NCBI GenBank assembly: GCA_027623195.1
Contig: JAQBUT010000002.1
Location: 111,193 to 175,192 of the forward strand
Length of the DNA stretch: 64,000 bases
Direction of reading: 5' to 3'
Origin: Chloroflexota bacterium
GTDB lineage: Bacteria > Chloroflexota > Dehalococcoidia > Lucifugimonadales > JADFKI01
A program made the position numbers and the translations under genes. Below are positions 858 to 12,328 of this stretch, in pieces. Numbering within the stretch: the first letter of the stretch is position 1; the number at the start of each line of letters is the position of its first letter. Under the pieces are notes generated by a model. That model did no database searches. It saw only the letters and a list, made by a program, of their open reading frames with translations, and was not told the origin of the DNA.

Positions 858-1556
858 CTACCCCAGCAGCAGCTTGCTCAACTCGGCCGGGTGGCTAAGC
901 ATGGGGTAGTGTCCTGCATCCAACTCGTACCATGCTGCGTTGAGCTTGTCTGCGGTGGCCCGCTGATGTGCCTCCGGTGGGTTGACACTCAGGCGGCAAC
1001 GGATGACCGTGGCTGGCCACTCCTGCGACCAGAAGCCGTCTAGCTCTCCGGGCGCGTCCGAGGCCTCGATTGGATGCGCGGTGCAGCGGTCTACGGCCCA
1101 GGCCTTCAGCGTCGGCTCCAGGTCGGCGAACAAACGCGTTTCCAACTCCTCTCGCGTGGGGCCGCGAGTGAGTTCTGTGGTCGTCATGGGCGCTGAATCG
1201 GGGTTACGCTGCACGATATCGGTAACCTTCTGGCCGGGCTGCGGAGCCAGGGCGTCTACGAAAAAGATGTGCTTGATTCTGTCTCGAGCCAACTCGGCGA
1301 TCTTGGCTACCACCAGACCACCGGTGCTTGTGCCTGCGAGCATCACGTTGTCAATGTCCTCGTAGAACATCAAGTCTGCTAACTCTTGGGCCTGTGTCGC
1401 GATGGTGATGCCGGGCCGAATCTGATGGCGGCGTTCGGCACAACCGTCCAGTGTCGGGACGTAGACGTTGTGTCCAGCCTCTCTCAAAATCTTGGCCGTT
1501 GGCTGCCAAATCCAGGCACCCTGAAATGATCCATGAACCAGTACGTAGTTTGCCAT
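858..1556 (-). CDS. Alpha/beta hydrolase (methylesterase-like)
   Basis: LVHGSFQGAWIW oxyanion motif, GTSTG nucleophile elbow, C-terminal DAGHYPMLSHP. Confidence 0.88.
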   Translation of the reverse strand: MANYVLVHGSFQGAWIWQPTAKILREAGHNVYVPTLDGCAERRHQIRPGITIATQAQELADLMFYEDIDNVMLAGTSTGGLVVAKIAELARDRIKHIFFVDALAPQPGQKVTDIVQRNPDSAPMTTTELTRGPTREELETRLFADLEPTLKAWAVDRCTAHPIEASDAPGELDGFWSQEWPATVIRCRLSVNPPEAHQRATADKLNAAWYELDAGHYPMLSHPAELSKLLLG

Positions 1557-1648
1557 TTCTTCTCCTTATGCTTTCTCTGTGACTGGCCGCCTGCAGGCCA
1601 GTGTCCGGGTCATTACGCTTCTTGTGGGAGCGAACCCGCCGTGACGGG

Positions 1649-2971
1649 TCAACGGGCCTCCCGCTGCACCCTGCGAACGCCACCCATATCTGCGCCCTCT
1701 AAAGGGATAGTTCCGATTACCTGCTTCGATTCCAGTTCTCTCATTCGTTCGTCTGGGTATCCTAACACTTCGCCAAGAAGGTACTCGTTGTGCTCGCCCA
1801 ACGTAGGCGCATGTTCGTGTCGTTTTTCGAAACGACCTTTATCTGAATTACCCAAGAACTTCCATATAGGGCCGCTCATAGGGTACGTTCCGGCATCGGG
1901 ATGTGTAACTACCTGGAAGTAATCTCGAGCCTGCAGGTGCGGGTCCTCGTACGTGTCCGCTCCGCAATCCAGAACAGGCCCAGCCGGAATGTTCTTGGCC
2001 TGTAACAGACGAAAGATGTCATACTTGTCACGTGTGGCTGTCCACTCGCCGATGATCTCGTCCAGTGCGTCCTGGTTTTCCAGGCGCGCTGCCAATGTGC
2101 CGAACCTACCGTCATCTCCCAGGTCCGGCACGCCCATGAGGGCGCAAAGGGCATGCCACTCGTTATTGTTGCGGATAGAAAGTGTCACCCACTGGTCTTC
2201 ACCTGTGCAGAGGTAGCAACCCTGAGGCGCAATCGCGGGGTGTCGATTGCCCCTACGCTCTCTGGGACGGCCTGTCATCTGCTCTTTCAGGAAGATCTCT
2301 CCAAGATGAGGCATGAAGGTCTCCGCCTGAGACAGGTCGATGAACTGGCCCTTGCCAGTGCGAGCCCTGTAGAGCAGCGCAGCGCAAATGGCGAAGTATG
2401 CCGTGACACCGCCTACCGCGTCTGGATGGTGCACCAGCGAATTGTTGGACAGGTCCATGTCCGGGTATCCGCGCAGCGCCGAGTGACCAGACAGCGCGTC
2501 TATGGCCATGCCCATGCTGTGAAATTTCTTGTATGGCCCTGTGTTGCCGTAACCAGGAGTAAACAGGACGATGAGGTCTGGCTTGACCTTGCGCAACTCC
2601 TCGTACCCCAGGCCCAGGCGGTCCATGACTCCAAAGGCATAGTTGGAGAAGACCACGTCGCTGAGACTGGCCATCTCCTTGAACGCCTCCCTGCCCTCCT
2701 CAGACCCCAGGTCGAGAGTCACGCCCAGCTTGTTCCTATTCAGCGCATTGAAATTGGCCTGTCGGTTCCACGCCCGTTCCCCAGGCTCGTCTTCGGGGTA
2801 ACCGGGCGTGTCTGGATTGGGGTGTATAAGTCCTCTGGCGATACGCTGAATGGCCTCTACTTTGATGACCTCTGCGCCCATGTCTCCCATAAGCACACCA
2901 CAGAAGGGACCGGCCCAGATCTCTGCTAGCTCCAGCGCCCGTACGCCCGACAGAGGGCCTTTGCTCGGCAC
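1649..2971 (-). CDS. Class III CoA-transferase (CaiB/BaiF family), catalytic-type subunit
   Basis: PLSGVRALEL...AGP...GAEVIKVE, NRNKLGVTLDL, HHPDAVGG (active-site Asp), APTLGEHN. GTG start overlaps the upstream stop. Confidence 0.93.
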   Translation of the reverse strand: MPSKGPLSGVRALELAEIWAGPFCGVLMGDMGAEVIKVEAIQRIARGLIHPNPDTPGYPEDEPGERAWNRQANFNALNRNKLGVTLDLGSEEGREAFKEMASLSDVVFSNYAFGVMDRLGLGYEELRKVKPDLIVLFTPGYGNTGPYKKFHSMGMAIDALSGHSALRGYPDMDLSNNSLVHHPDAVGGVTAYFAICAALLYRARTGKGQFIDLSQAETFMPHLGEIFLKEQMTGRPRERRGNRHPAIAPQGCYLCTGEDQWVTLSIRNNNEWHALCALMGVPDLGDDGRFGTLAARLENQDALDEIIGEWTATRDKYDIFRLLQAKNIPAGPVLDCGADTYEDPHLQARDYFQVVTHPDAGTYPMSGPIWKFLGNSDKGRFEKRHEHAPTLGEHNEYLLGEVLGYPDERMRELESKQVIGTIPLEGADMGGVRRVQREAR

Positions 2972-4197
2972 TAGACCACACCCCTATCGCGCAATTCAGT
3001 CAGGTCGCTTTCACGTAATCCAAGAATCTCGCCGTATACCTCAGGGTTATGCTGTCCTAGCGTGGGTGCGGGTGTTGGCTCGTTGCGGGGCATGTCGGAA
3101 TACAAGAAAGGCAGGCCAGTGTAGGTCAGGACACCAGCCTCCGGATGCGCCAGGTCAACGAAGTAGTCGCGAAACTTGAACTGCTCGTTCTCCAGTGCGT
3201 CAGAAGTCGTCTGAATGGGTGCGCAGGGCAGGCCCTCCCCCTGTCCGGCATCGAAAATCTCGGCTCGGGTGTGCCTGTCGAACCACTCCTGGAATTCAGC
3301 TTCGATCTCCTCACGGAACTCGGTGCGGCCTTCAGGAGTTTTGTAGCGCTCCACGTCCAAGAGTTCGGGCCTCTTTATCATCCTCGCCAGATTGGGCCAC
3401 ATGCGGGGACCCAATGGCAGAAAGCTGACGAAGCCGTCCTTGCATCGGAATGTGCCGACGGCGTATGGCTCGCGGGAGCCTGACGCCGTCAGACGAGGTG
3501 GCTTGCGCGGGTCGGTCTCGCCGCCGTAGATGTACGGCAGCCGTCGGCCAATCTGGTGAGGATGTCCGGCCATGCACTCCTGCATAGCGATGTCGATCCA
3601 CTCTCCCTTGCCGGTCATGGTTGCCTGAAATATGGCCGTCATAGTCGCCGCAACTGCCGCCGTGCCGGTGAAGTACTGGGCTGCCTCCGCGCCGTAACGC
3701 AGCGGCTCTCTCTCCGGAAGGCCCTCCCTGTGCATGGCACCACCCATGGCGAAGATGGTCAGCTCAGTGAACTCGAAATCTTTGTACGGTCCCGCTTGAC
3801 CGAATGGGGTTATGGATGTCATTACCAGGTCAACGTGGTTTTCTGACAGCGCGCCGTATCCCAGGCCGAGTGACTCCATTTGGTCCGGGGGACCGTTCTC
3901 GATAACGACATGGCTTTGCGCGGCCAACTCGCGGAAGAGTCTTGCGCCCTCCGAGGTCTTTATATCCAGCGTCACTCCCTTCTTCTGGCGGTTCAGGTGC
4001 AGGAAGAGGCCGCTCTTCTCCAGGTGCGGCTTGTCGTTGATGAAGGGACCGTGTTGTCGGGACGTGTCGCCGGTGGCGGGTCGTTCCACCTTGATGACGT
4101 CGGCCCCGTAGTCGGCCAGCATTTTGGCGCAGTAGGGCCCGGCGATGTCTGTGGAGACATCGAGAACGCGAACTCCCTCCAGGGCGAGAAACGGCAA
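2971..4197 (-). CDS. Class III CoA-transferase (CaiB/BaiF family), subunit lacking the catalytic Asp
   Basis: LEGVRVLD...AGPYCAKMLADYGADVIKVE, LNRQKKGVTLD, APTLGQHN. Has AAQYFTG at the position of the catalytic Asp. Confidence 0.92.
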   Translation of the reverse strand: MPFLALEGVRVLDVSTDIAGPYCAKMLADYGADVIKVERPATGDTSRQHGPFINDKPHLEKSGLFLHLNRQKKGVTLDIKTSEGARLFRELAAQSHVVIENGPPDQMESLGLGYGALSENHVDLVMTSITPFGQAGPYKDFEFTELTIFAMGGAMHREGLPEREPLRYGAEAAQYFTGTAAVAATMTAIFQATMTGKGEWIDIAMQECMAGHPHQIGRRLPYIYGGETDPRKPPRLTASGSREPYAVGTFRCKDGFVSFLPLGPRMWPNLARMIKRPELLDVERYKTPEGRTEFREEIEAEFQEWFDRHTRAEIFDAGQGEGLPCAPIQTTSDALENEQFKFRDYFVDLAHPEAGVLTYTGLPFLYSDMPRNEPTPAPTLGQHNPEVYGEILGLRESDLTELRDRGVV

Positions 4198-4367
4198 AGG
4201 CCTACCTCATGCGCAAGACGGCGACAGGGCCAATTCTCCATGCGTCGGAGCCAGGTTGTCAACCGGCGTTTATAGAAAGGACGGCTTGGTAAAAATTATG
4301 CCTTTGCAGTTGGATACCTGCCGTAACCGTTTGGCTCAGATATTAGGCTAAAAGCAGGAGGGTTCCC

Positions 4368-5696
4368 ATGGCATTGAAGACTTACGGAACGATGGGCGTG
4401 GACTGGGAGGAGCGTATCGACTATGACAGGCTGCGCACGCAGCGCTTGGACAAGGCCAAGGCTCTCCTAAAGAAGTCGGATATGGGCGCGATTCTGACTT
4501 TCGACATGAACAACATTCGTTACCTCACGGCGACGATCATCGGCACGTGGGCCATGGACAAGCTGGTGCGCTATGCCCTGATGCCCCAGGATCACGAACC
4601 CATTCTGTGGGACTTTGGGTCGGCTGCCAAGCATCACCAGCTTTACTGCCCATGGCTAGGCGACCGCTCCCGCGCAGGCATCTCTACCCTGCGAGGCGCT
4701 ACTCCCGAGGGAGCGGGTCTCGCCGCCGACGTGGCAAAAAAGATACGCATAGAGCTGGAACTGCGAGGCCTGAAAGACGAGCCACTGGGCGTGGACATCG
4801 TGGAACCCGTGGTCCTATTTGCGCTGCAAAACGAAGGGCTGAACGTGGTTGACGGGCAGCAGCTAATGCTGGAGGCCCGCCGTGTAAAGACTGACGACGA
4901 AATCACCCTGCTGAACATGGCCTGCGGAATGGTCGATGCCGTCTACGACGAGCTGTACATGATGCTGCGGGCCGGTGTGCGCGAGAACGACGCTGTCGCC
5001 CTAGCCAACAAGATTCTTTACGAGCTTGGCTCGGAGCATGTGGAGGGCGTTAACGCCATCTCCGGCGAGCGCACAAATCCGCATCCGCACAACTATAGCG
5101 ACCGTCTGTTGCGGCAGGGCGACCCGGTGTACTTCGACATTCTTCATAGCTACATGGGCTATCGAACGTGTTACTACCGCACCATGGTCATCGGCAGCGC
5201 GTCGCAGGCGCAGATCGACGCATACAAGAAGTGTCGCGAGATTCTGGACATCTCCATCGACAAGGTGAAGCCTGGTATCACCACTGCCGACATCGTGAAG
5301 GACTGGCCCAAGGCCCAGGAGTTCGGCTTCGAAAACGAGGAGGCCGCGTTCGCACTGCAGTACGGGCACGGCGTCGGACTGTCCATCTGGGAGAAGCCTA
5401 TCTTCAGCCGGTTGGTGTCGTTGGACAACCCGCAGCCCATCGAAGAGAACATGGTCTTCGCGTTGGAAACCTTCTGGCCTTCCGCTGACGGGTGGTCGGC
5501 GGCCCGCATCGAGGAGGAGGTTGTTGTCACCAAGACCGGCGCCGAGGTAATCACCCGCTTCCCCGCCGAGCAGCTGATGGTGGCGGGACCGCGCTACCAC
5601 ACCGCCACGGGGCCGCTATCGGCCACCCGGGAGGCGCAGTCGCACCTGAACCGCGCCGACGGCATTCCCCCTGGAATAGCAGGGGCGCACGCCTAG
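4368..5696 (+). CDS. M24 family (Xaa-Pro peptidase/creatinase-like) metallohydrolase
   Basis: RRVKTDDEI, YFDI..SYMGY, GHGVGL, ALET, RIEEEVVVT pita-bread fold motifs. RBS AGGAGG. Confidence 0.92.
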   Translation: MALKTYGTMGVDWEERIDYDRLRTQRLDKAKALLKKSDMGAILTFDMNNIRYLTATIIGTWAMDKLVRYALMPQDHEPILWDFGSAAKHHQLYCPWLGDRSRAGISTLRGATPEGAGLAADVAKKIRIELELRGLKDEPLGVDIVEPVVLFALQNEGLNVVDGQQLMLEARRVKTDDEITLLNMACGMVDAVYDELYMMLRAGVRENDAVALANKILYELGSEHVEGVNAISGERTNPHPHNYSDRLLRQGDPVYFDILHSYMGYRTCYYRTMVIGSASQAQIDAYKKCREILDISIDKVKPGITTADIVKDWPKAQEFGFENEEAAFALQYGHGVGLSIWEKPIFSRLVSLDNPQPIEENMVFALETFWPSADGWSAARIEEEVVVTKTGAEVITRFPAEQLMVAGPRYHTATGPLSATREAQSHLNRADGIPPGIAGAHA

Positions 5697-5768: not shown

Positions 5769-6521
5769 ATGGGTAGTGAGGCGTTTGAACGGCACATCTC
5801 TCTGGAAGGCGCGTACAACTTTCGCGACCTGGGCGGCTATCGCACGAACGATGGCCGGACTGTCAAATGGCGGAGCCTGTTTCGGAGTGGCGAACTTCAC
5901 CTCTTGACCGATCTGGATGTGTCGCGGTTGCGAGGTGAACTTGGTCTAACCACGGTTTTGGACCTGCGAACCACGGACGAAAGCGACGCCGGGGGCATGG
6001 GGCAATTGCAAAATCTAGGGGTTCAACATCACAGCCTACCTTTCACTGCCAGTCTAGCCGAAGATTTTAATTTGCTTCAGGCAGTTCAAAACATGGGAGA
6101 GTTTTATATTGAACTCACTTCTCGAAAGGCTTTCGGAATTAACCTGCTGGAGGCGCTCAACTTGATTGCCGATCCTCATAATCACGCGCTGACCTTCCAC
6201 TGCTCTGTTGGCAAAGACCGGACCGGAGTTTTGGCGGCCATTCTGCTCGGAGCGTTGGGAGTGCCTGACGAGGAGATTGTTGCCGATTATGAGCTGTCGC
6301 AGGCGGCAATGGACTCGATAAACCAGAGAATTATGGCAGACCCCGTTAGATCAGAACGCAACAGGCTGTTGCCCAATTTCACCCAAGAAGCGGCACCAAA
6401 GGCCATGCGAGTTTTCCTGTCTTCCTTGAGGGGCGAATACGGTTCCATGCGCGGTTACGTCGAAGCGCAGGGAGGGGATGATGCCTTGTTTCAGCAACTG
6501 GAAAACGTGCTTTTGGAGTAG
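5769..6521 (+). CDS. Tyrosine-protein phosphatase (Y_phosphatase3/IphP-like)
   Basis: NFRDLGGY, LFRSG, DLR, P-loop HCSVGKDRTG, DYELS. Confidence 0.93.
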   Translation: MGSEAFERHISLEGAYNFRDLGGYRTNDGRTVKWRSLFRSGELHLLTDLDVSRLRGELGLTTVLDLRTTDESDAGGMGQLQNLGVQHHSLPFTASLAEDFNLLQAVQNMGEFYIELTSRKAFGINLLEALNLIADPHNHALTFHCSVGKDRTGVLAAILLGALGVPDEEIVADYELSQAAMDSINQRIMADPVRSERNRLLPNFTQEAAPKAMRVFLSSLRGEYGSMRGYVEAQGGDDALFQQLENVLLE

Positions 6522-6556: not shown

Positions 6557-7345
6557 TTATCCAGCGCCCTCATCTGAGTCTGGAGGGAACCCTTCGTTTT
6601 CAGTGAGTAAATGATGCTTCAAACGGTCCAGACGTCCGCTAATGGTCATGTCTACTAGCGTGTCACCCGTGCGAATAGAAATGCCTCCCAATACCGATGG
6701 GTCGACCTTATAGAATGTCCTTACCTCCCTCTTAGCCATTTGAGCCAGAAAGTCGGATATCTGCTTCTCCTGGTTGGCGCTCATCGGGACCGCCGTGGTG
6801 ACAATCGCGAACCCAATTGATTTCCTAGCTGGAGGTTCCCACGTAAGTTTCGACAGTTCCTCGGTCGCCTCTGAAAGGAGTTTTTGTTGCTCCTCTTCAT
6901 CGAGTGATCGTTGCAGTGAACGCTCTGCTGCGGCCATAACCAGCTCTACAAATGAGTGGTGCAGGTCCTGATACGCCAGTCTGCTTTCCTGGCGCAACTG
7001 ATCCTTGGTCCGCTTCAATTGAGTCTCGGCTGCTTTGCGGGCCCGCCTAAGTCCATCTTGCACATGTCTCTCAGCCAACTCTTCGGCGGCTCGAAGCAGG
7101 GCGTCCCCTTCCCTGCGCGCTTCGGTCAACAATTCCTTCCGAGTTCTGACCGCCTCGTCGGTGATGTTACTGGCGTCTTCTTTATTCGCCGCCCACGTTT
7201 TCTCCTCCTCAGCACGCGTCTTTAGTTTCCGCATAAGTGGTTTGAAGGCAAGCAGGTACAACACCCCCCAGAGTACCAGGAAGTTCACGGTGTATATCAG
7301 CAGGCTGGGAAGGTGGACTCCCAGCCGTTGCAGCGTGTCCAACAT
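6557..7345 (-). CDS. atpF: F0F1 ATP synthase subunit b fused to the C-terminal domain of subunit delta (orphan copy)
   Basis: N-terminal LGVHLPSLLIYTVNFLVLWGVLYLLAFKP TM helix, charged coiled coil, then AIVTTAVPM...VDPSVLGGISIRTGDTLVDMTISGRL (delta/OSCP C-terminal signature). Confidence 0.85.
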   Translation of the reverse strand: MLDTLQRLGVHLPSLLIYTVNFLVLWGVLYLLAFKPLMRKLKTRAEEEKTWAANKEDASNITDEAVRTRKELLTEARREGDALLRAAEELAERHVQDGLRRARKAAETQLKRTKDQLRQESRLAYQDLHHSFVELVMAAAERSLQRSLDEEEQQKLLSEATEELSKLTWEPPARKSIGFAIVTTAVPMSANQEKQISDFLAQMAKREVRTFYKVDPSVLGGISIRTGDTLVDMTISGRLDRLKHHLLTENEGFPPDSDEGAG

Positions 7346-7347
7346 TG

Positions 7348-8250
7348 CTAATTCCCGTTCTTGGATGTTGCTTCATTGTTGCCTTCGGCGACGACCATCA
7401 GCACCACAGTCAATCCCGCAAACACAAAAGCCTGTAGAGTTCCGAGCAGTATTTCCAAACCGTAGAATGGGACAACCAGCATCAAGGGAGTCAAGAAGGA
7501 GATCACTATTCGCAGCAACTCACCAGCAGTTAGAGCTCCAAACAAGCGGAAGGTGAAACTAAACAATCTTGCCAGGATGGTGATGTCGTGTAGAACTGCT
7601 GCGAACATCTTAACCAGACCAGCCAGCGGCTTCCCCCTTATGAGGCTTTGAATGGGGAAAAATTGCCTAAAATAAACGATCCCTTTAGTTCTAAATACGT
7701 GAAGCTCAACAAATATACCAGTAACAATTGCCAACGAAAGAGGCATGTTAATGTCGGTCCCCGCTCCTCGCAACAAGGCAAACGTCCCTTCTGCGCTGTC
7801 TGGAGATTCAATCAACACCGGGCCGTAGACCGGCAAAAGCGTAATCCAGGCGTTGGCGGTTATGAAGAGAAAAAGTGTCGCCACGAAGGAAAAGGTCACG
7901 ATGGAATACCGCTCTCCTGCGATTCCTTTGAACAGCCCCCAAAGGGACTCCAGGATAATGTCAACCGTTCTCCGGCTTTGCGGGAACACGCGGCCGCCAG
8001 GCCCAATAGCGAAGCCTATCAGTCCGATGAGGATGAGCGTTGCCAGCCAGGAAGATAGGATAGTGTTGGTGATCGCGAAAGAGCCGATCGTATATAAAGT
8101 GTCGGCTTGCAGGTGAATTGTGGGGGGCGGTACCAGTTCCTTTATGCCGAAAATATCTCTTGCCAGCAAGCGAAGAAGTACGCCTCCAACGCCGGCAATT
8201 ACGACGCATAGAATAGAGACCTTTACCAGGGTACGTCCGGTAAATATCAA
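7348..8250 (-). CDS. atpB: F0F1 ATP synthase subunit a (orphan, divergent)
   Basis: ITNTILSSW, FLFITANAWITLLP, TDINMPLSLA, FSFTFRLFGALTAGE (conserved Arg), FYGLEILLGTLQAFVF. Start uncertain (TTG). Confidence 0.88.
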   Translation of the reverse strand: MIFTGRTLVKVSILCVVIAGVGGVLLRLLARDIFGIKELVPPPTIHLQADTLYTIGSFAITNTILSSWLATLILIGLIGFAIGPGGRVFPQSRRTVDIILESLWGLFKGIAGERYSIVTFSFVATLFLFITANAWITLLPVYGPVLIESPDSAEGTFALLRGAGTDINMPLSLAIVTGIFVELHVFRTKGIVYFRQFFPIQSLIRGKPLAGLVKMFAAVLHDITILARLFSFTFRLFGALTAGELLRIVISFLTPLMLVVPFYGLEILLGTLQAFVFAGLTVVLMVVAEGNNEATSKNGN

Positions 8251-8430
8251 CAGAAATACCTAAAATGCGATACGTCCGACTTCCACGTAGGGAATTCCGA
8301 GCTTTAACCGAAATTGGCCGAGTGGGTCGTTGACGATTGAAGAAGTCAATCGCCTAGTCTTTTGCCAGAATGTTAAGGTCATGAAGGCCGCGATACAAAT
8401 GGCAAACGCTGGCAGGCGTCACGCGCGCCC

Positions 8431-10025: not shown

Positions 10026-11141
10026 TTGGCTGACAAAGTAGGCCTGGCCATTATTGGCTCAACGGGAATAATAGGGCGAGTACACATCGATGCCATTGCC
10101 CAACTGGATAGTTGCCGTGTGGTTGGCATCACCGCGCGGAGCCAGGAGCCGCTTCGGAAGCAGGCGATGGAGCAACATGTAACCATGTACGCCACTCTGG
10201 ACGAGGTGCTGGAGGACCCGGAGGTCGACGCCGTGGTAATCGCCACGCCGCACCCGTCTCACCTGGAGATTACGCTGAAGGCAGCGGCGGCGGGTAAGCA
10301 CATCCTCGCAGAGAAGCCAATGAGCGTTACGCCATCCGACGCCGACGCTATGATTGCCGCCGCCAAGTCGGCAGGAGTGAAGCTAGGGGTTCTCTTCAAC
10401 AACCGCTTTCGTCCTGAGGCCATAAAAGCCAAAGAGCTTATTCAGCAAGGCGCCATCGGCTCCATAAACCGAGTTAGCATGTCCAGCGTCATGCTGCGCA
10501 GTCAGGACTACTACGACCGCCTGGATTGGCGCGGCCGCTGGGACATGGAAGGCGGCGGCGTTTTGATTAACCAGGGCATCCACGCCATAGACATGATGCA
10601 GTGGCTCGGCGGTATGCCAACGACCGTCTTCGGACGGATCACCGCTCACAGGCACAACGTCGAGGTTGAGGATCATGCCACGGCGGTAATGGAGTTCGCT
10701 GGCGGCGGCCACGGTACGCTGCACTGCACCACGGCCCAGGCCCCTAATCAACATCGTATAGAGATTTGGGGTGAGAAGGGTGCACTGATCCTGGATAACT
10801 GGGTGCTGACGCTACACAAGATTGGAACGTCGGTCACGGACTACGTCAATAACAACAAGGACGTCGCCTTCACAACCCCCGATGTTCAGACCGAGATCTT
10901 TGACGACTTTGAATCGATGGCAGGCACCCATGCGCCCGCCATTGACGACTTCGCACGCGCCATCCTGGAAAACAGGGAGCCGTCCATAACTGGCGAGGAT
11001 GGCCTTAGGTCGCAGGAGTTGGTTGCTGCTGTCACGCTGTCCGGTTGCCGGGAGAAACTGGTGCGTCTGCCCGTGGGCCGCGCCGAGTACGACGGCCTCA
11101 TGAACGAACTGCGCACCACAAGACGGATGCCTGGCAGGTAG
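10026..11141 (+). CDS. Gfo/Idh/MocA family oxidoreductase
   Basis: IIGSTGIIG, DAVVIATPHPSH, KHILAEKPM, GGGVLINQGIHAID, VEVED. Confidence 0.93.
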   Translation: MADKVGLAIIGSTGIIGRVHIDAIAQLDSCRVVGITARSQEPLRKQAMEQHVTMYATLDEVLEDPEVDAVVIATPHPSHLEITLKAAAAGKHILAEKPMSVTPSDADAMIAAAKSAGVKLGVLFNNRFRPEAIKAKELIQQGAIGSINRVSMSSVMLRSQDYYDRLDWRGRWDMEGGGVLINQGIHAIDMMQWLGGMPTTVFGRITAHRHNVEVEDHATAVMEFAGGGHGTLHCTTAQAPNQHRIEIWGEKGALILDNWVLTLHKIGTSVTDYVNNNKDVAFTTPDVQTEIFDDFESMAGTHAPAIDDFARAILENREPSITGEDGLRSQELVAAVTLSGCREKLVRLPVGRAEYDGLMNELRTTRRMPGR

Positions 11142-11169
11142 CGCATTCTAGGTAGACCCTCCGATAGCA

Positions 11170-11239
11170 TGTCATGCCGAAGAGATTGTCTGGATTCGCA
11201 GGCGTGCGTTCTAGATGCCCAGCTCTGCTCGGAATGACA
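11170..11239. repeat. TGTCAT(T/G)CCGA...TCGGAATGACA palindromic repeat, degenerate copy
   Basis: Terminal inverted repeats TGTCATGCCGA (11170-11180) and TCGGAATGACA (11229-11239). Same family as 35818-35924. Confidence 0.65.
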
Positions 11240-11284
11240 CTATCTTTCGTTTGGAAATAACGAAATCGAAGGAAATCCAGAAAT

Positions 11285-12328
11285 ATGAAGTTCGCCTTGT
11301 TTACGCATGTGCCTTGGCCTGAGGGATACGAACCGGCGAAGATTCTGGCAGAGACTACCGAGCAGATTCAGTACGGCGAGGAACTGGGCTTCCACAGCGC
11401 CTGGTTTGCGGAGCACCACTTCTCGCGCTACAGCATGGGCTCGTCGTCGCTGGTCATAGCTGCTGCTATTGCGGCAGCAACAAAGCGTATTCGTTTGGGC
11501 ACTGCCGTGCTGGTCCCGACTCTGCATAACCCGATACGTCTGGCCGAGGACGCCGCGACAGTAGACGCCATCAGCAACGGTCGTCTGGACCTGGGCTTCG
11601 GTCGTGGCAGCGGCGGTTACGAGTACGGGGGCTTCAACGTAAGTCGGGAGGAGAGCCAGGCCCACTTTCAGGAGAGTGTGCGCATAGTGGAGGGACTTTT
11701 CACCACAACCGAGTTCTCATATGCCGGACAGTTCTACCAGTTAAACAAGATAAACCTGGTGCCGCCGGTTACGCAGAAGCCTCACCCGCCCATGTACGTC
11801 GCAGCGTCGTTTACGCAGGAGACTTTGGACTTCGCCGTGTCGACGGGCCACAAACTGGCGTTGGCCGTAGTGCAGGACACCGAGCAGTCCCTGGACCTGT
11901 GCAAGCGCTTCGTGAAGATGTCGGCCGAGGCGGGCCACAACATACCCATGTCGGAGATACCGTTCTTTCGCTACTTCTACGTGGCCGAGACCGAGGAGCA
12001 GGCGCGTGAGGATACGGAGTCTCATATCAACTGGATTCTAGATATCATGCAGTGGCGGCGCATCTTCGACAAGGGCAGCAGCGAAGTGCCTTACAGCATC
12101 GAGGACTGGCGGCGCACTCGCACAGACGCGCCCTTGAGTTACGAATACATCAACGAGAATCGGGCATTCATCGGCACTCCCGAGCAGTGCGTCGTGAAGA
12201 TTCAGCGGCTGCGGGACGAGGGCATCGAGTACTTCGGCTGCAACTTCCACTTCGGCGGCATCTCGCATGAAAAGGCCATGAAGTCCATGGAGCTTTTTTC
12301 GAAAGAGGTCATGCCGCAGCTCTTGTGA
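11285..12328 (+). CDS. LLM class flavin-dependent oxidoreductase (luciferase-like monooxygenase)
   Basis: WFAEHHF, RIRLGTAV, HNPIRLAEDAATVDAISNGRLDLGFGRG, PHPP, GTPEQC. Confidence 0.93.
   Translation: MKFALFTHVPWPEGYEPAKILAETTEQIQYGEELGFHSAWFAEHHFSRYSMGSSSLVIAAAIAAATKRIRLGTAVLVPTLHNPIRLAEDAATVDAISNGRLDLGFGRGSGGYEYGGFNVSREESQAHFQESVRIVEGLFTTTEFSYAGQFYQLNKINLVPPVTQKPHPPMYVAASFTQETLDFAVSTGHKLALAVVQDTEQSLDLCKRFVKMSAEAGHNIPMSEIPFFRYFYVAETEEQAREDTESHINWILDIMQWRRIFDKGSSEVPYSIEDWRRTRTDAPLSYEYINENRAFIGTPEQCVVKIQRLRDEGIEYFGCNFHFGGISHEKAMKSMELFSKEVMPQLL

Follow-up and report, generated by a model that had tools for sequence, protein, structure and literature searches.

The window analysed here is a stretch of 64,000 nucleotides from the genome of a bacterium of the Chloroflexota class Dehalococcoidia, and it contains two adjacent genes for proteins related to stator subunits of the F-type ATP synthase (Table 1). 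The upstream gene encodes a paralogue of AtpB, the a subunit, and its product is designated a'. The downstream gene encodes a b subunit joined to the delta subunit's C-terminal domain, designated b-deltaC. In the window, the two genes are separated by 2 nt; because of this short gap, a gene atpE between them is excluded, and since b-deltaC starts 2 nt past the a' stop codon, translational coupling is likely. On one side, the pair is flanked by a convergent Tyr phosphatase gene (PF13350), and upstream, on the same strand as the pair, by an Ap4A phosphorylase gene (PF19327/PF09830). A first-pass annotation of this DNA had described an atpB-like gene next to a b/delta-C fusion without room for atpE and had named both neighbours; both open reading frames were found where it had placed them, and the neighbours were supported by the profile matches.

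Table 1. Features of the stator gene pair and its upstream region (positions in the window).
Feature	Position	Strand	Remark
a' gene (atpB paralogue)	7348..8250	minus	300 aa, TTG start
b-deltaC fusion gene	6557..7345	minus	262 aa; ATP-synt_B and partial delta/OSCP profile matches
7-bp inverted repeat	8334..8352	.	about 85 nt upstream of a'
His221 codon, in place of outlet Glu (Ca E235, Ec E196)	7588..7590	minus	9ITJ alignment
Arg235 codon, essential stator arginine (Ca R249, Ec R210), kept	7546..7548	minus	9ITJ alignment
Ala239 codon, in place of inlet-end Asn (Ca N253, Ec N214)	7534..7536	minus	9ITJ alignment
b-like part of b-deltaC, residues 1-166	6848..7345	minus	membrane anchor (N21-F22, P36, R44), then coiled coil
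delta C-terminal domain of b-deltaC, residues ~179-252	6590..6811	minus	delta N-terminal domain absent

An independent contig from an estuary study (run X3) covers the pair together with both flanks, with 22 letter differences and 1 gap in 3325 bases, and the pair is therefore not an assembly artefact. In the estuary strain, no insertion or deletion is present within the pair itself. The same strain (X3, X5) lacks one base of the Tyr phosphatase gene at window position 6244, which results in a predicted frameshift. In addition, low-depth contig pieces with about 86-89% identity to both genes (window 6570-8307) were identified in X3 and X5, and a second related estuary population seems to carry the pair as well. 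The GC content near the pair is 0.51-0.53, compared to 0.57-0.60 in the adjoining sequence. Further away, positions 858-5696 and 10026-12328 of the window form a catabolic stretch without relation to the pair, coding for a family III CoA-transferase, an M24 peptidase-like protein, a luciferase-like monooxygenase and a Gfo/Idh/MocA oxidoreductase.

The inverted repeat upstream of a' is a possible terminator or regulator site; terminator-like sites were found seven times in the scan, with 3.9 expected by chance. A sigma70-like promoter was not found upstream of a' (region-wide, 1 was observed and 2.0 were expected). When the four loci known to carry the pair (see below) were compared by eye, the inverted repeat was not seen upstream of the other three, nor was an upstream motif common to all four. 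The sequencing runs listed for the pair include no RNA run, which speaks neither for nor against expression.

For b-deltaC, the b subunit profile PF00430 was matched at residues 16-145, and of the 172 positions in the delta profile PF00213, only 73-172 were matched. The AlphaFold model of the protein (mean pLDDT 86) consists of a long helix (residues 12-147), a short helix (150-166) and a delta-C domain of four strands and two helices, which matches delta-C of bacterial F-ATPases; a helical delta-N bundle is not present in the model. The initial description of a b protein carrying the C-terminal delta domain alone is thus supported both by the profile and by the model. The coiled-coil b-like part is as long as the b subunit of the host (167 aa), and its best match in the PDB is the C. 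aurantiacus enzyme. In a comparison of 23 fusions of this orphan type, G9, N21-F22, P36 and R44 were kept throughout, and counted from G9, the first strand of delta-C is reached after 173 residues in 13 of them and after 171-174 in 19, a span that fits a stalk still required to reach the top of F1. The conserved positions of delta-C are retained at a mean of 0.68, compared to 0.74 in the fusions of another Chloroflexota family, f146, which is described below. The 'DGS' motif of delta is mostly 'DA[T/S]', with the glycine retained in one of the 23 proteins. Among the proteins obtained in a search of representatives, a few (P0185, P0199, P0210 and P0171) contain two or three delta-C-like stretches in tandem or, in one case, repeated b-like segments before delta-C.

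The host genome is a metagenome-assembled genome (MAG) of 87% completeness, and by its named relatives the lineage belongs to SAR202/Dehalococcoidia. A complete operon for the ATP synthase, consisting of an atpI-like ORF (ATPase gene-1) and atpB, E, F, H, A, G, D and C, is present on host contig C42, and the main operon on which the first-pass reading depended was thereby located, with a normal a, a normal b and a full-length delta. Just after atpC, a convergent gene (L001:5167-5793 on G000:C42; PF06971 and PF02629) codes for what we take to be a Rex-like redox-sensing repressor. One c gene (atpE) and one alpha/beta pair were found in the genome; PF00006 gave three matches, namely alpha, beta and a weaker third one elsewhere, which its score and length suggest to be Rho. 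The housekeeping a contains every canonical channel residue, atpH is intact, alpha has 503 aa, and the delta profile is matched by the host protein at positions 2-172, as in the two other genomes that carry the pair. Since this operon is separate and full, and since a' and the housekeeping a share no more than about 30% identity, the pair is an addition to the ATP synthase genes of the host, and its identification as dispersed housekeeping genes was rejected.

The coupled pair was identified at four loci: in the host, in G050 (a SAR202 MAG of the host's order, VGZV01000033.1, 96% complete), in G651 (another Dehalococcoidia order, 93% complete) and on a metagenome contig (L037). An occurrence of the pair in relatives, which the first-pass annotation had proposed to look for, was therefore confirmed in two further Dehalococcoidia genomes and one contig. 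The two genes are joined by the 2-nt gap or by overlaps of 4, 4 and 8 nt, and the neighbours differ at all four loci, none of them being conserved. A separate main operon is present in both G050 and G651 (with beta interrupted by a contig end in G651). In each of these genomes, a single c gene and a single alpha were found and delta is of full length, while the fusions in their pairs contain delta-C alone, without delta-N. A further pair of a' and fusion is represented by consecutive accessions (NIO07565.1/NIO07566.1) from a MAG whose own label is Deltaproteobacteria. For nine more couples, the longest contig of both partners is of equal length (2033, 3105, 4350, 5002, 8362, 11421, 16409, 38872 and 121509 bases), which suggests that a' and fusion are co-located in these cases, possibly with atpE between them; the couple on 5002 bases and the NIO pair fall into one cluster, and a close match to L037 is given by the couple on 38872 bases.

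The pair is rare, and its distribution is patchy. Full-length matches were obtained in 3 of 401 genomes of the class, in 2 of 401 in a second, largely overlapping draw from the class, in 2 of 401 genomes of the order (host counted) and in 1 of 16 genomes of the order of G651. Among 401 genomes of the phylum, the host alone has the pair, and five other matches are housekeeping fusions. A search of 26 other genomes of the host family, two of which belong to the genus of the host and are 86-89% complete, did not reveal the pair in any of them, and it is therefore dispensable for the lineage. Narrow pattern scans gave one locus in genome contigs and two in metagenome contigs, two of these three being one contig, and a search of 72,556 plasmid records with b-deltaC as query resulted in a single match, an ordinary delta. 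A third a-like match, in G021 (L034, G021:C3), was rejected since it sits in a complete operon and is of a distant, proteobacterial-looking type; this second atp operon of G021, located beside parAB-like genes, is probably a contamination of the bin. The next-best a matches, in G056, G493 and G574, are housekeeping genes adjoining atpE.

A midpoint-rooted tree was computed from 62 a sequences, without P0058 and without many of the housekeeping rows that are nearly identical to one another. In this tree, the 26 sequences of the a' type are united on a single branch (support 100/99) nested among a subunits of the Dehalococcoidia type. This branch splits into the close clade, with 10 rows (support 100/100), and the sister clade, with 16 rows (94/91). 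In a quick tree of 79 rows, the 23 orphan-type fusions likewise form one branch (SH-aLRT 99), split into 9 and 14. In both trees, the host and G050 are placed in one subclade and G651 in the other, and the clades of a' and b-deltaC match. The grouping of the fusions with Dehalococcoidia b and delta has a support of 59, and a grouping with f146-like sequences is not rejected (p-AU 0.55); by BLAST, Dehalococcoidia b and delta-C were preferred for 23 of 23 fusions. The simplest history would be a duplication of atpB-E-F-H, followed by loss of atpE and delta-N and by patchy retention or transfer. Among the four loci, dN is 0.36-0.59 for a' and 0.49-0.85 for the fusion, with dS from 1.2 to saturated; where dS is finite, dN/dS is 0.12-0.52, rough values given the saturation and the GC differences. 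Both genes are under purifying selection. Strain variants gave 1:4 non-synonymous to synonymous codons for a' and 4:3 for the fusion, numbers which are too small to weigh.

The a' protein was identified as a member of the ATP-synt_A family (PF00119, 78.7 bits with a cut-off of 33.9), and it scores under every NCBIfam equivalog cut-off. It carries a further helix at the N terminus, as do the a subunits of Dehalococcoidia. Both by sequence and by fold, its top PDB match is subunit a of C. aurantiacus (9ITJ/9ITQ); for the predicted model of a' (pLDDT 73), Foldseek gave an E value of 2e-11 and TM scores of 0.65/0.75 with 9ITQ. The positions of a' were mapped by alignment to 9ITJ, with the E. coli numbering given by motif. 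For the C. aurantiacus enzyme, a proton path was described with R249 as checkpoint, an inlet including E258, E280 and N253, and an outlet comprising S238, K242, E239 and E235 (PMC12002316). Residues were counted in 9 non-redundant close members and 16 sister members of the a' family and in 97 other best matches taken as housekeeping, after four rows of the same cluster, the duplicate entry of the window and one distant sequence had been dropped.

The essential arginine, the glutamine of helix 6 (Q273 in a') and the inlet glutamate E258 are present in 25 of 25 members of the a' family, and the inlet glutamate E280 in 24 of 25. The inlet-end asparagine N253 was found in none of the 9 close members, in 4 of the 16 sister members and in all 97 others; in the a' family, it is replaced by Ala, Val, Thr or Ser. 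The outlet glutamate E235 is present in 1 of 9 close members (7 have His), in 9 of 16 sister members (3 more have Asp) and in 97 of 97 others. Among 64 distinct motifs from the fetched loci, the 60 that do not come from pairs all carry both residues. According to PMC10306403, the inlet-end Asn and the outlet Glu are conserved widely, but not universally. In the close clade, divergence is strongest in the outlet helix segment (213-226), with a match of 0.17 to the housekeeping consensus, compared to 0.71 for housekeeping a subunits; the arginine segment and helix 6 hold 0.62-0.64. For E. coli, it was reported that the exchanges N214V/L/Q/E lower the conductance with growth on succinate being retained (cited in PMC11121307), and that E196L has small effects on pKa values, the activity being lowered by mutations at these positions (PMC8754430). 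Judged by these replacements, a' looks like a retuned, slower proton conductor. A lysine at the position of E258 was seen in a few otherwise ordinary a subunits (3 of 97; P0052, P0088, P0124, L091).

Taken together, the pair probably has a function, with the housekeeping enzyme as its target, be it as an extra stator, as a brake or as a swap. That it is an accessory stator which depends on the c-ring and F1 of the main enzyme is well supported as an inference. As the best explanation, which we favour tentatively and at somewhat less than even confidence, the pair would provide an extra, slow-conducting stator on the only c-ring and F1 of the host and would raise H+/ATP for conditions of low proton motive force (pmf). 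In such an arrangement, b-deltaC would dimerise with itself or with the b subunit of the host, anchor a', and dock on an alpha subunit through delta-C. According to Ueno et al., delta-N fills the central site of alpha3beta3 and thereby restricts the enzyme to one stalk (PMC12229609); b-deltaC has no delta-N and would therefore not need this single site of F1. The a' protein would occupy a free face of the c-ring, where its arginine would impose a second proton release and uptake per c subunit per turn; with the arginine intact, each passing c would drop and regain a proton, and therefore even a slow a' would raise the number of protons per turn. By this second proton path, H+/ATP would increase and the threshold pmf would decrease. 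The exchange of Asn for Ala and the remodelled outlet may slow the second path or shift its pH dependence, and may limit both speed and reverse pumping. The pair might thus serve as a conditional 'low gear' in energy-poor periods, in which rotation is slowed and more protons are used per turn. Its stator could either be added beside the normal one, or could displace delta and b2 with several copies being bound.

Given the canonical delta and the single rotor found in the hosts, the reading as a second stator is the most economical one. A more far-reaching version, which we consider slightly less probable again, regards the pair as a separately encoded and probably mobile 'gearbox', by which a single-stator enzyme would be converted on demand into a mixed two- or three-stator form, with H+/ATP set by expression and operation at about half of the usual pmf. 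Several points weigh against an extra stator. Unlike the short, dimerising delta of C. aurantiacus, the delta of the host is full-length and canonical, and a second stalk may be blocked by the delta-N of the host. In the engineered enzyme, Ueno et al. joined delta-dN to alpha because they doubted that free delta-C binds stably (PMC12229609). The two channel changes combined may abolish conduction, the glycine of 'DGS' is nearly lost, and the pair was not found in the other family genomes searched. The first-pass annotation had proposed an accessory, swappable stator, and none of the three refuting conditions named there applied; the accessory nature is supported by the separate operon, the recurrence and dN/dS, and swapping is one of three possible modes. 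An additional stator is favoured over a swap because delta-N is missing, and a brake is possible because the channel residues are changed.

With the same docking, the pair could act as a brake, a doubtful possibility that nonetheless deserves weight: a' would conduct little or nothing, its arginine would trap the carboxylates of the c-ring, and rotation would stall, so that wasteful ATP hydrolysis or proton leak would be halted during dormancy. The complete loss of the inlet-end Asn and the near loss of the outlet Glu in the close clade, both residues being invariant in the other sequences counted, are in line with this function, as is the concentration of divergence in the outlet helix; furthermore, molecular dynamics predict an interrupted proton chain for N214L (PMC11121307). 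A plug, however, would not require the buried inlet acids E258 and E280 and the helix-6 Gln, which are almost invariant, and the partial retention of both changed residues in the sister clade resembles retuning rather than a fixed inactivation. The succinate growth reported for E. coli mutants also holds for aliphatic residues at N214, which argues against a complete block.

A one-for-one exchange, in which the pair conditionally takes the place of a, b2 and delta of the housekeeping enzyme to give a single stator with another pH optimum or rate, appears quite unlikely. All stator requirements are provided by the pair, b-deltaC is the working sole stator gene in family f146, a clash with delta-N of the host would be avoided, and the pKa values and thus the pH dependence are moved in the alkaline direction by N214L (PMC8754430). 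However, c and F1 share an operon with a, b and delta of the housekeeping enzyme, so that the latter are always made along with them, and without delta-N there is no obvious limit to one stalk, so that a replacement would drift into the multi-stator case. An action independent of the housekeeping F1Fo is improbable: for a second set of c and F1 that escaped assembly, an unrelated rotor, or a role as a sink for c-ring and F1 assembly, it can be argued that the hosts are MAGs of 87%, 96% and 93% completeness and that other Chloroflexota have split atp operons, but each of the three genomes has one c gene and one alpha, AtpR was not found in them, and the four loci share no conserved neighbour. 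Finally, a decaying remnant of a duplicated operon, to which the scattered occurrence, the length of the branches, the loss of conserved residues and the lower GC might point, is highly improbable and already largely refuted by frames intact at 44-67% identity, dS near saturation, a dN/dS of at most about 0.5 in place of the value near 1 named in the first-pass annotation for a decaying duplicate, a junction of b and delta-C that is exactly in frame and conserved in length, and matching trees of both genes.

The H+/ATP ratio is usually regarded as fixed for a species through the size of the c-ring. In two papers from 2025, it was shown that the number of stators also sets H+/ATP, one of them dealing with an engineered and one with a constitutive two-stator enzyme (PMC12229609, PMC12002316). 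If the extra-stator reading is true, H+/ATP would become switchable within one cell through a second stator with genes of its own, and energy-starved Dehalococcoidia would gain ATP synthesis at low pmf. If the pair is a brake, it would represent a new type of regulator on the Fo side, for which a subunit a paralogue was used. Being only 1.7 kb in size, the pair is directly testable, and it could become a portable part for the tuning of ATP synthases. In searches of the open literature, a description of such a stand-alone pair was not found. A preprint proposed that multi-stalk enzymes adapted to low potential are recognisable by a delta that is short or fused to b; the terms 'SAR202' and 'stand-alone' do not occur in it, and its beta-centred neighbourhood supplements could bear on the novelty (10.64898/2026.10.01.756066). 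The parts are known, and it is the stand-alone arrangement and the systematic remodelling of the channel that appear to be undescribed.

Among the known systems, N-ATPases have an operon atpDCQRBEFAG and a long b with a delta-like tail, and they accompany a normal F-ATPase (PMC2881411). The pair shares with them the long b with a C-terminal delta segment, the absence of delta-N and the presence in addition to a normal F-ATPase, and this part of the likeness noted in the first-pass annotation stands. The N-type models, in contrast, gave 23.4 bits (TIGR03306, cut-off 302) and 58.2 bits (TIGR03321, cut-off 224.7); AtpR (PF12966) was found in none of the three host genomes, with the M. acetivorans positive control being matched; and a' nests among Dehalococcoidia a subunits, in a tree comprising no verified N-ATPase sequence. 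An identity as N-ATPase was rejected since the two genes stand alone at 4 of 4 loci, without c, F1, AtpQ or AtpR of their own. By their sequences, the genes appear to derive from F-ATPase genes of the Dehalococcoidia type, with a likeness to N-ATPases in architecture alone. The mycobacterial b-delta is also a stalk fused from b and delta; it has 445 aa, contains the whole delta including the N-domain and is encoded in the operon, whereas the protein described here has 262 aa with a match to the C-terminal domain alone.

The same b-deltaC architecture is found in family f146 of the Chloroflexota, with 175 versus 173 residues to delta-C. Here, an atpB-atpE-atpF/deltaC unit is present, and in 5 of 5 genomes that are nearly complete and were chosen because they matched (G936, G974, G872, G856 and G1114; L110-L114), b and delta are each matched by the fusion alone. 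The F1 genes are located elsewhere, and alpha carries an insert. Since no other b or delta was matched in these genomes, b-deltaC without delta-N can serve as a working stator, and the f146 enzymes are candidates for natural multi-stalk enzymes. The f146 unit differs from the pair in being the sole stator, in including atpE, in belonging to a separate clade (three sequences compared) and in an a subunit that keeps the RLFGN motif. The tuning of a rotary motor by alternative stator isoforms is also represented by the V-ATPase subunit a isoforms Vph1 and Stv1, which differ in coupling, and by the alternative stator sets of flagella; both are different machines, and the analogy is a functional one.

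The two-stator F1Fo of C. aurantiacus (9ITJ series) is from the same phylum as the host and is the closest PDB match of a' and of the b part. It contains two a subunits and a c10 ring, with each stalk bound via delta-C on the beta-barrel of alpha (PMC12002316). Its two stators are identical and encoded in one operon, whereas the pair is a separate, divergent two-gene unit with changed channel residues; its delta is of 157 aa with a short, dimerising delta-N, by which the two stators are made possible, whereas the delta of the host is full-length and the pair is without delta-N. In the engineered FoF1 of Bacillus PS3, delta(dN)-alpha (9JC1), delta-C is likewise used alone, and up to three a-b2 stators with an H+/ATP of 5.8 were reported (PMC12229609). 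In the same work, the removal of delta-N resulted in about two stalks on average, with a maximum of three, in an equilibrium pmf of 68 versus 133 mV and in a lower pumping activity (PMC12229609). In the PS3 design, delta-C is placed on alpha and the native delta is removed, whereas in the natural system described here, delta-C is placed on b, the native delta is encoded, and a' is a distinct paralogue. With its free-standing paralogous genes, the pair would by analogy come closest in its mode of action to the 'a-b-truncated delta' unit of the PS3 design.
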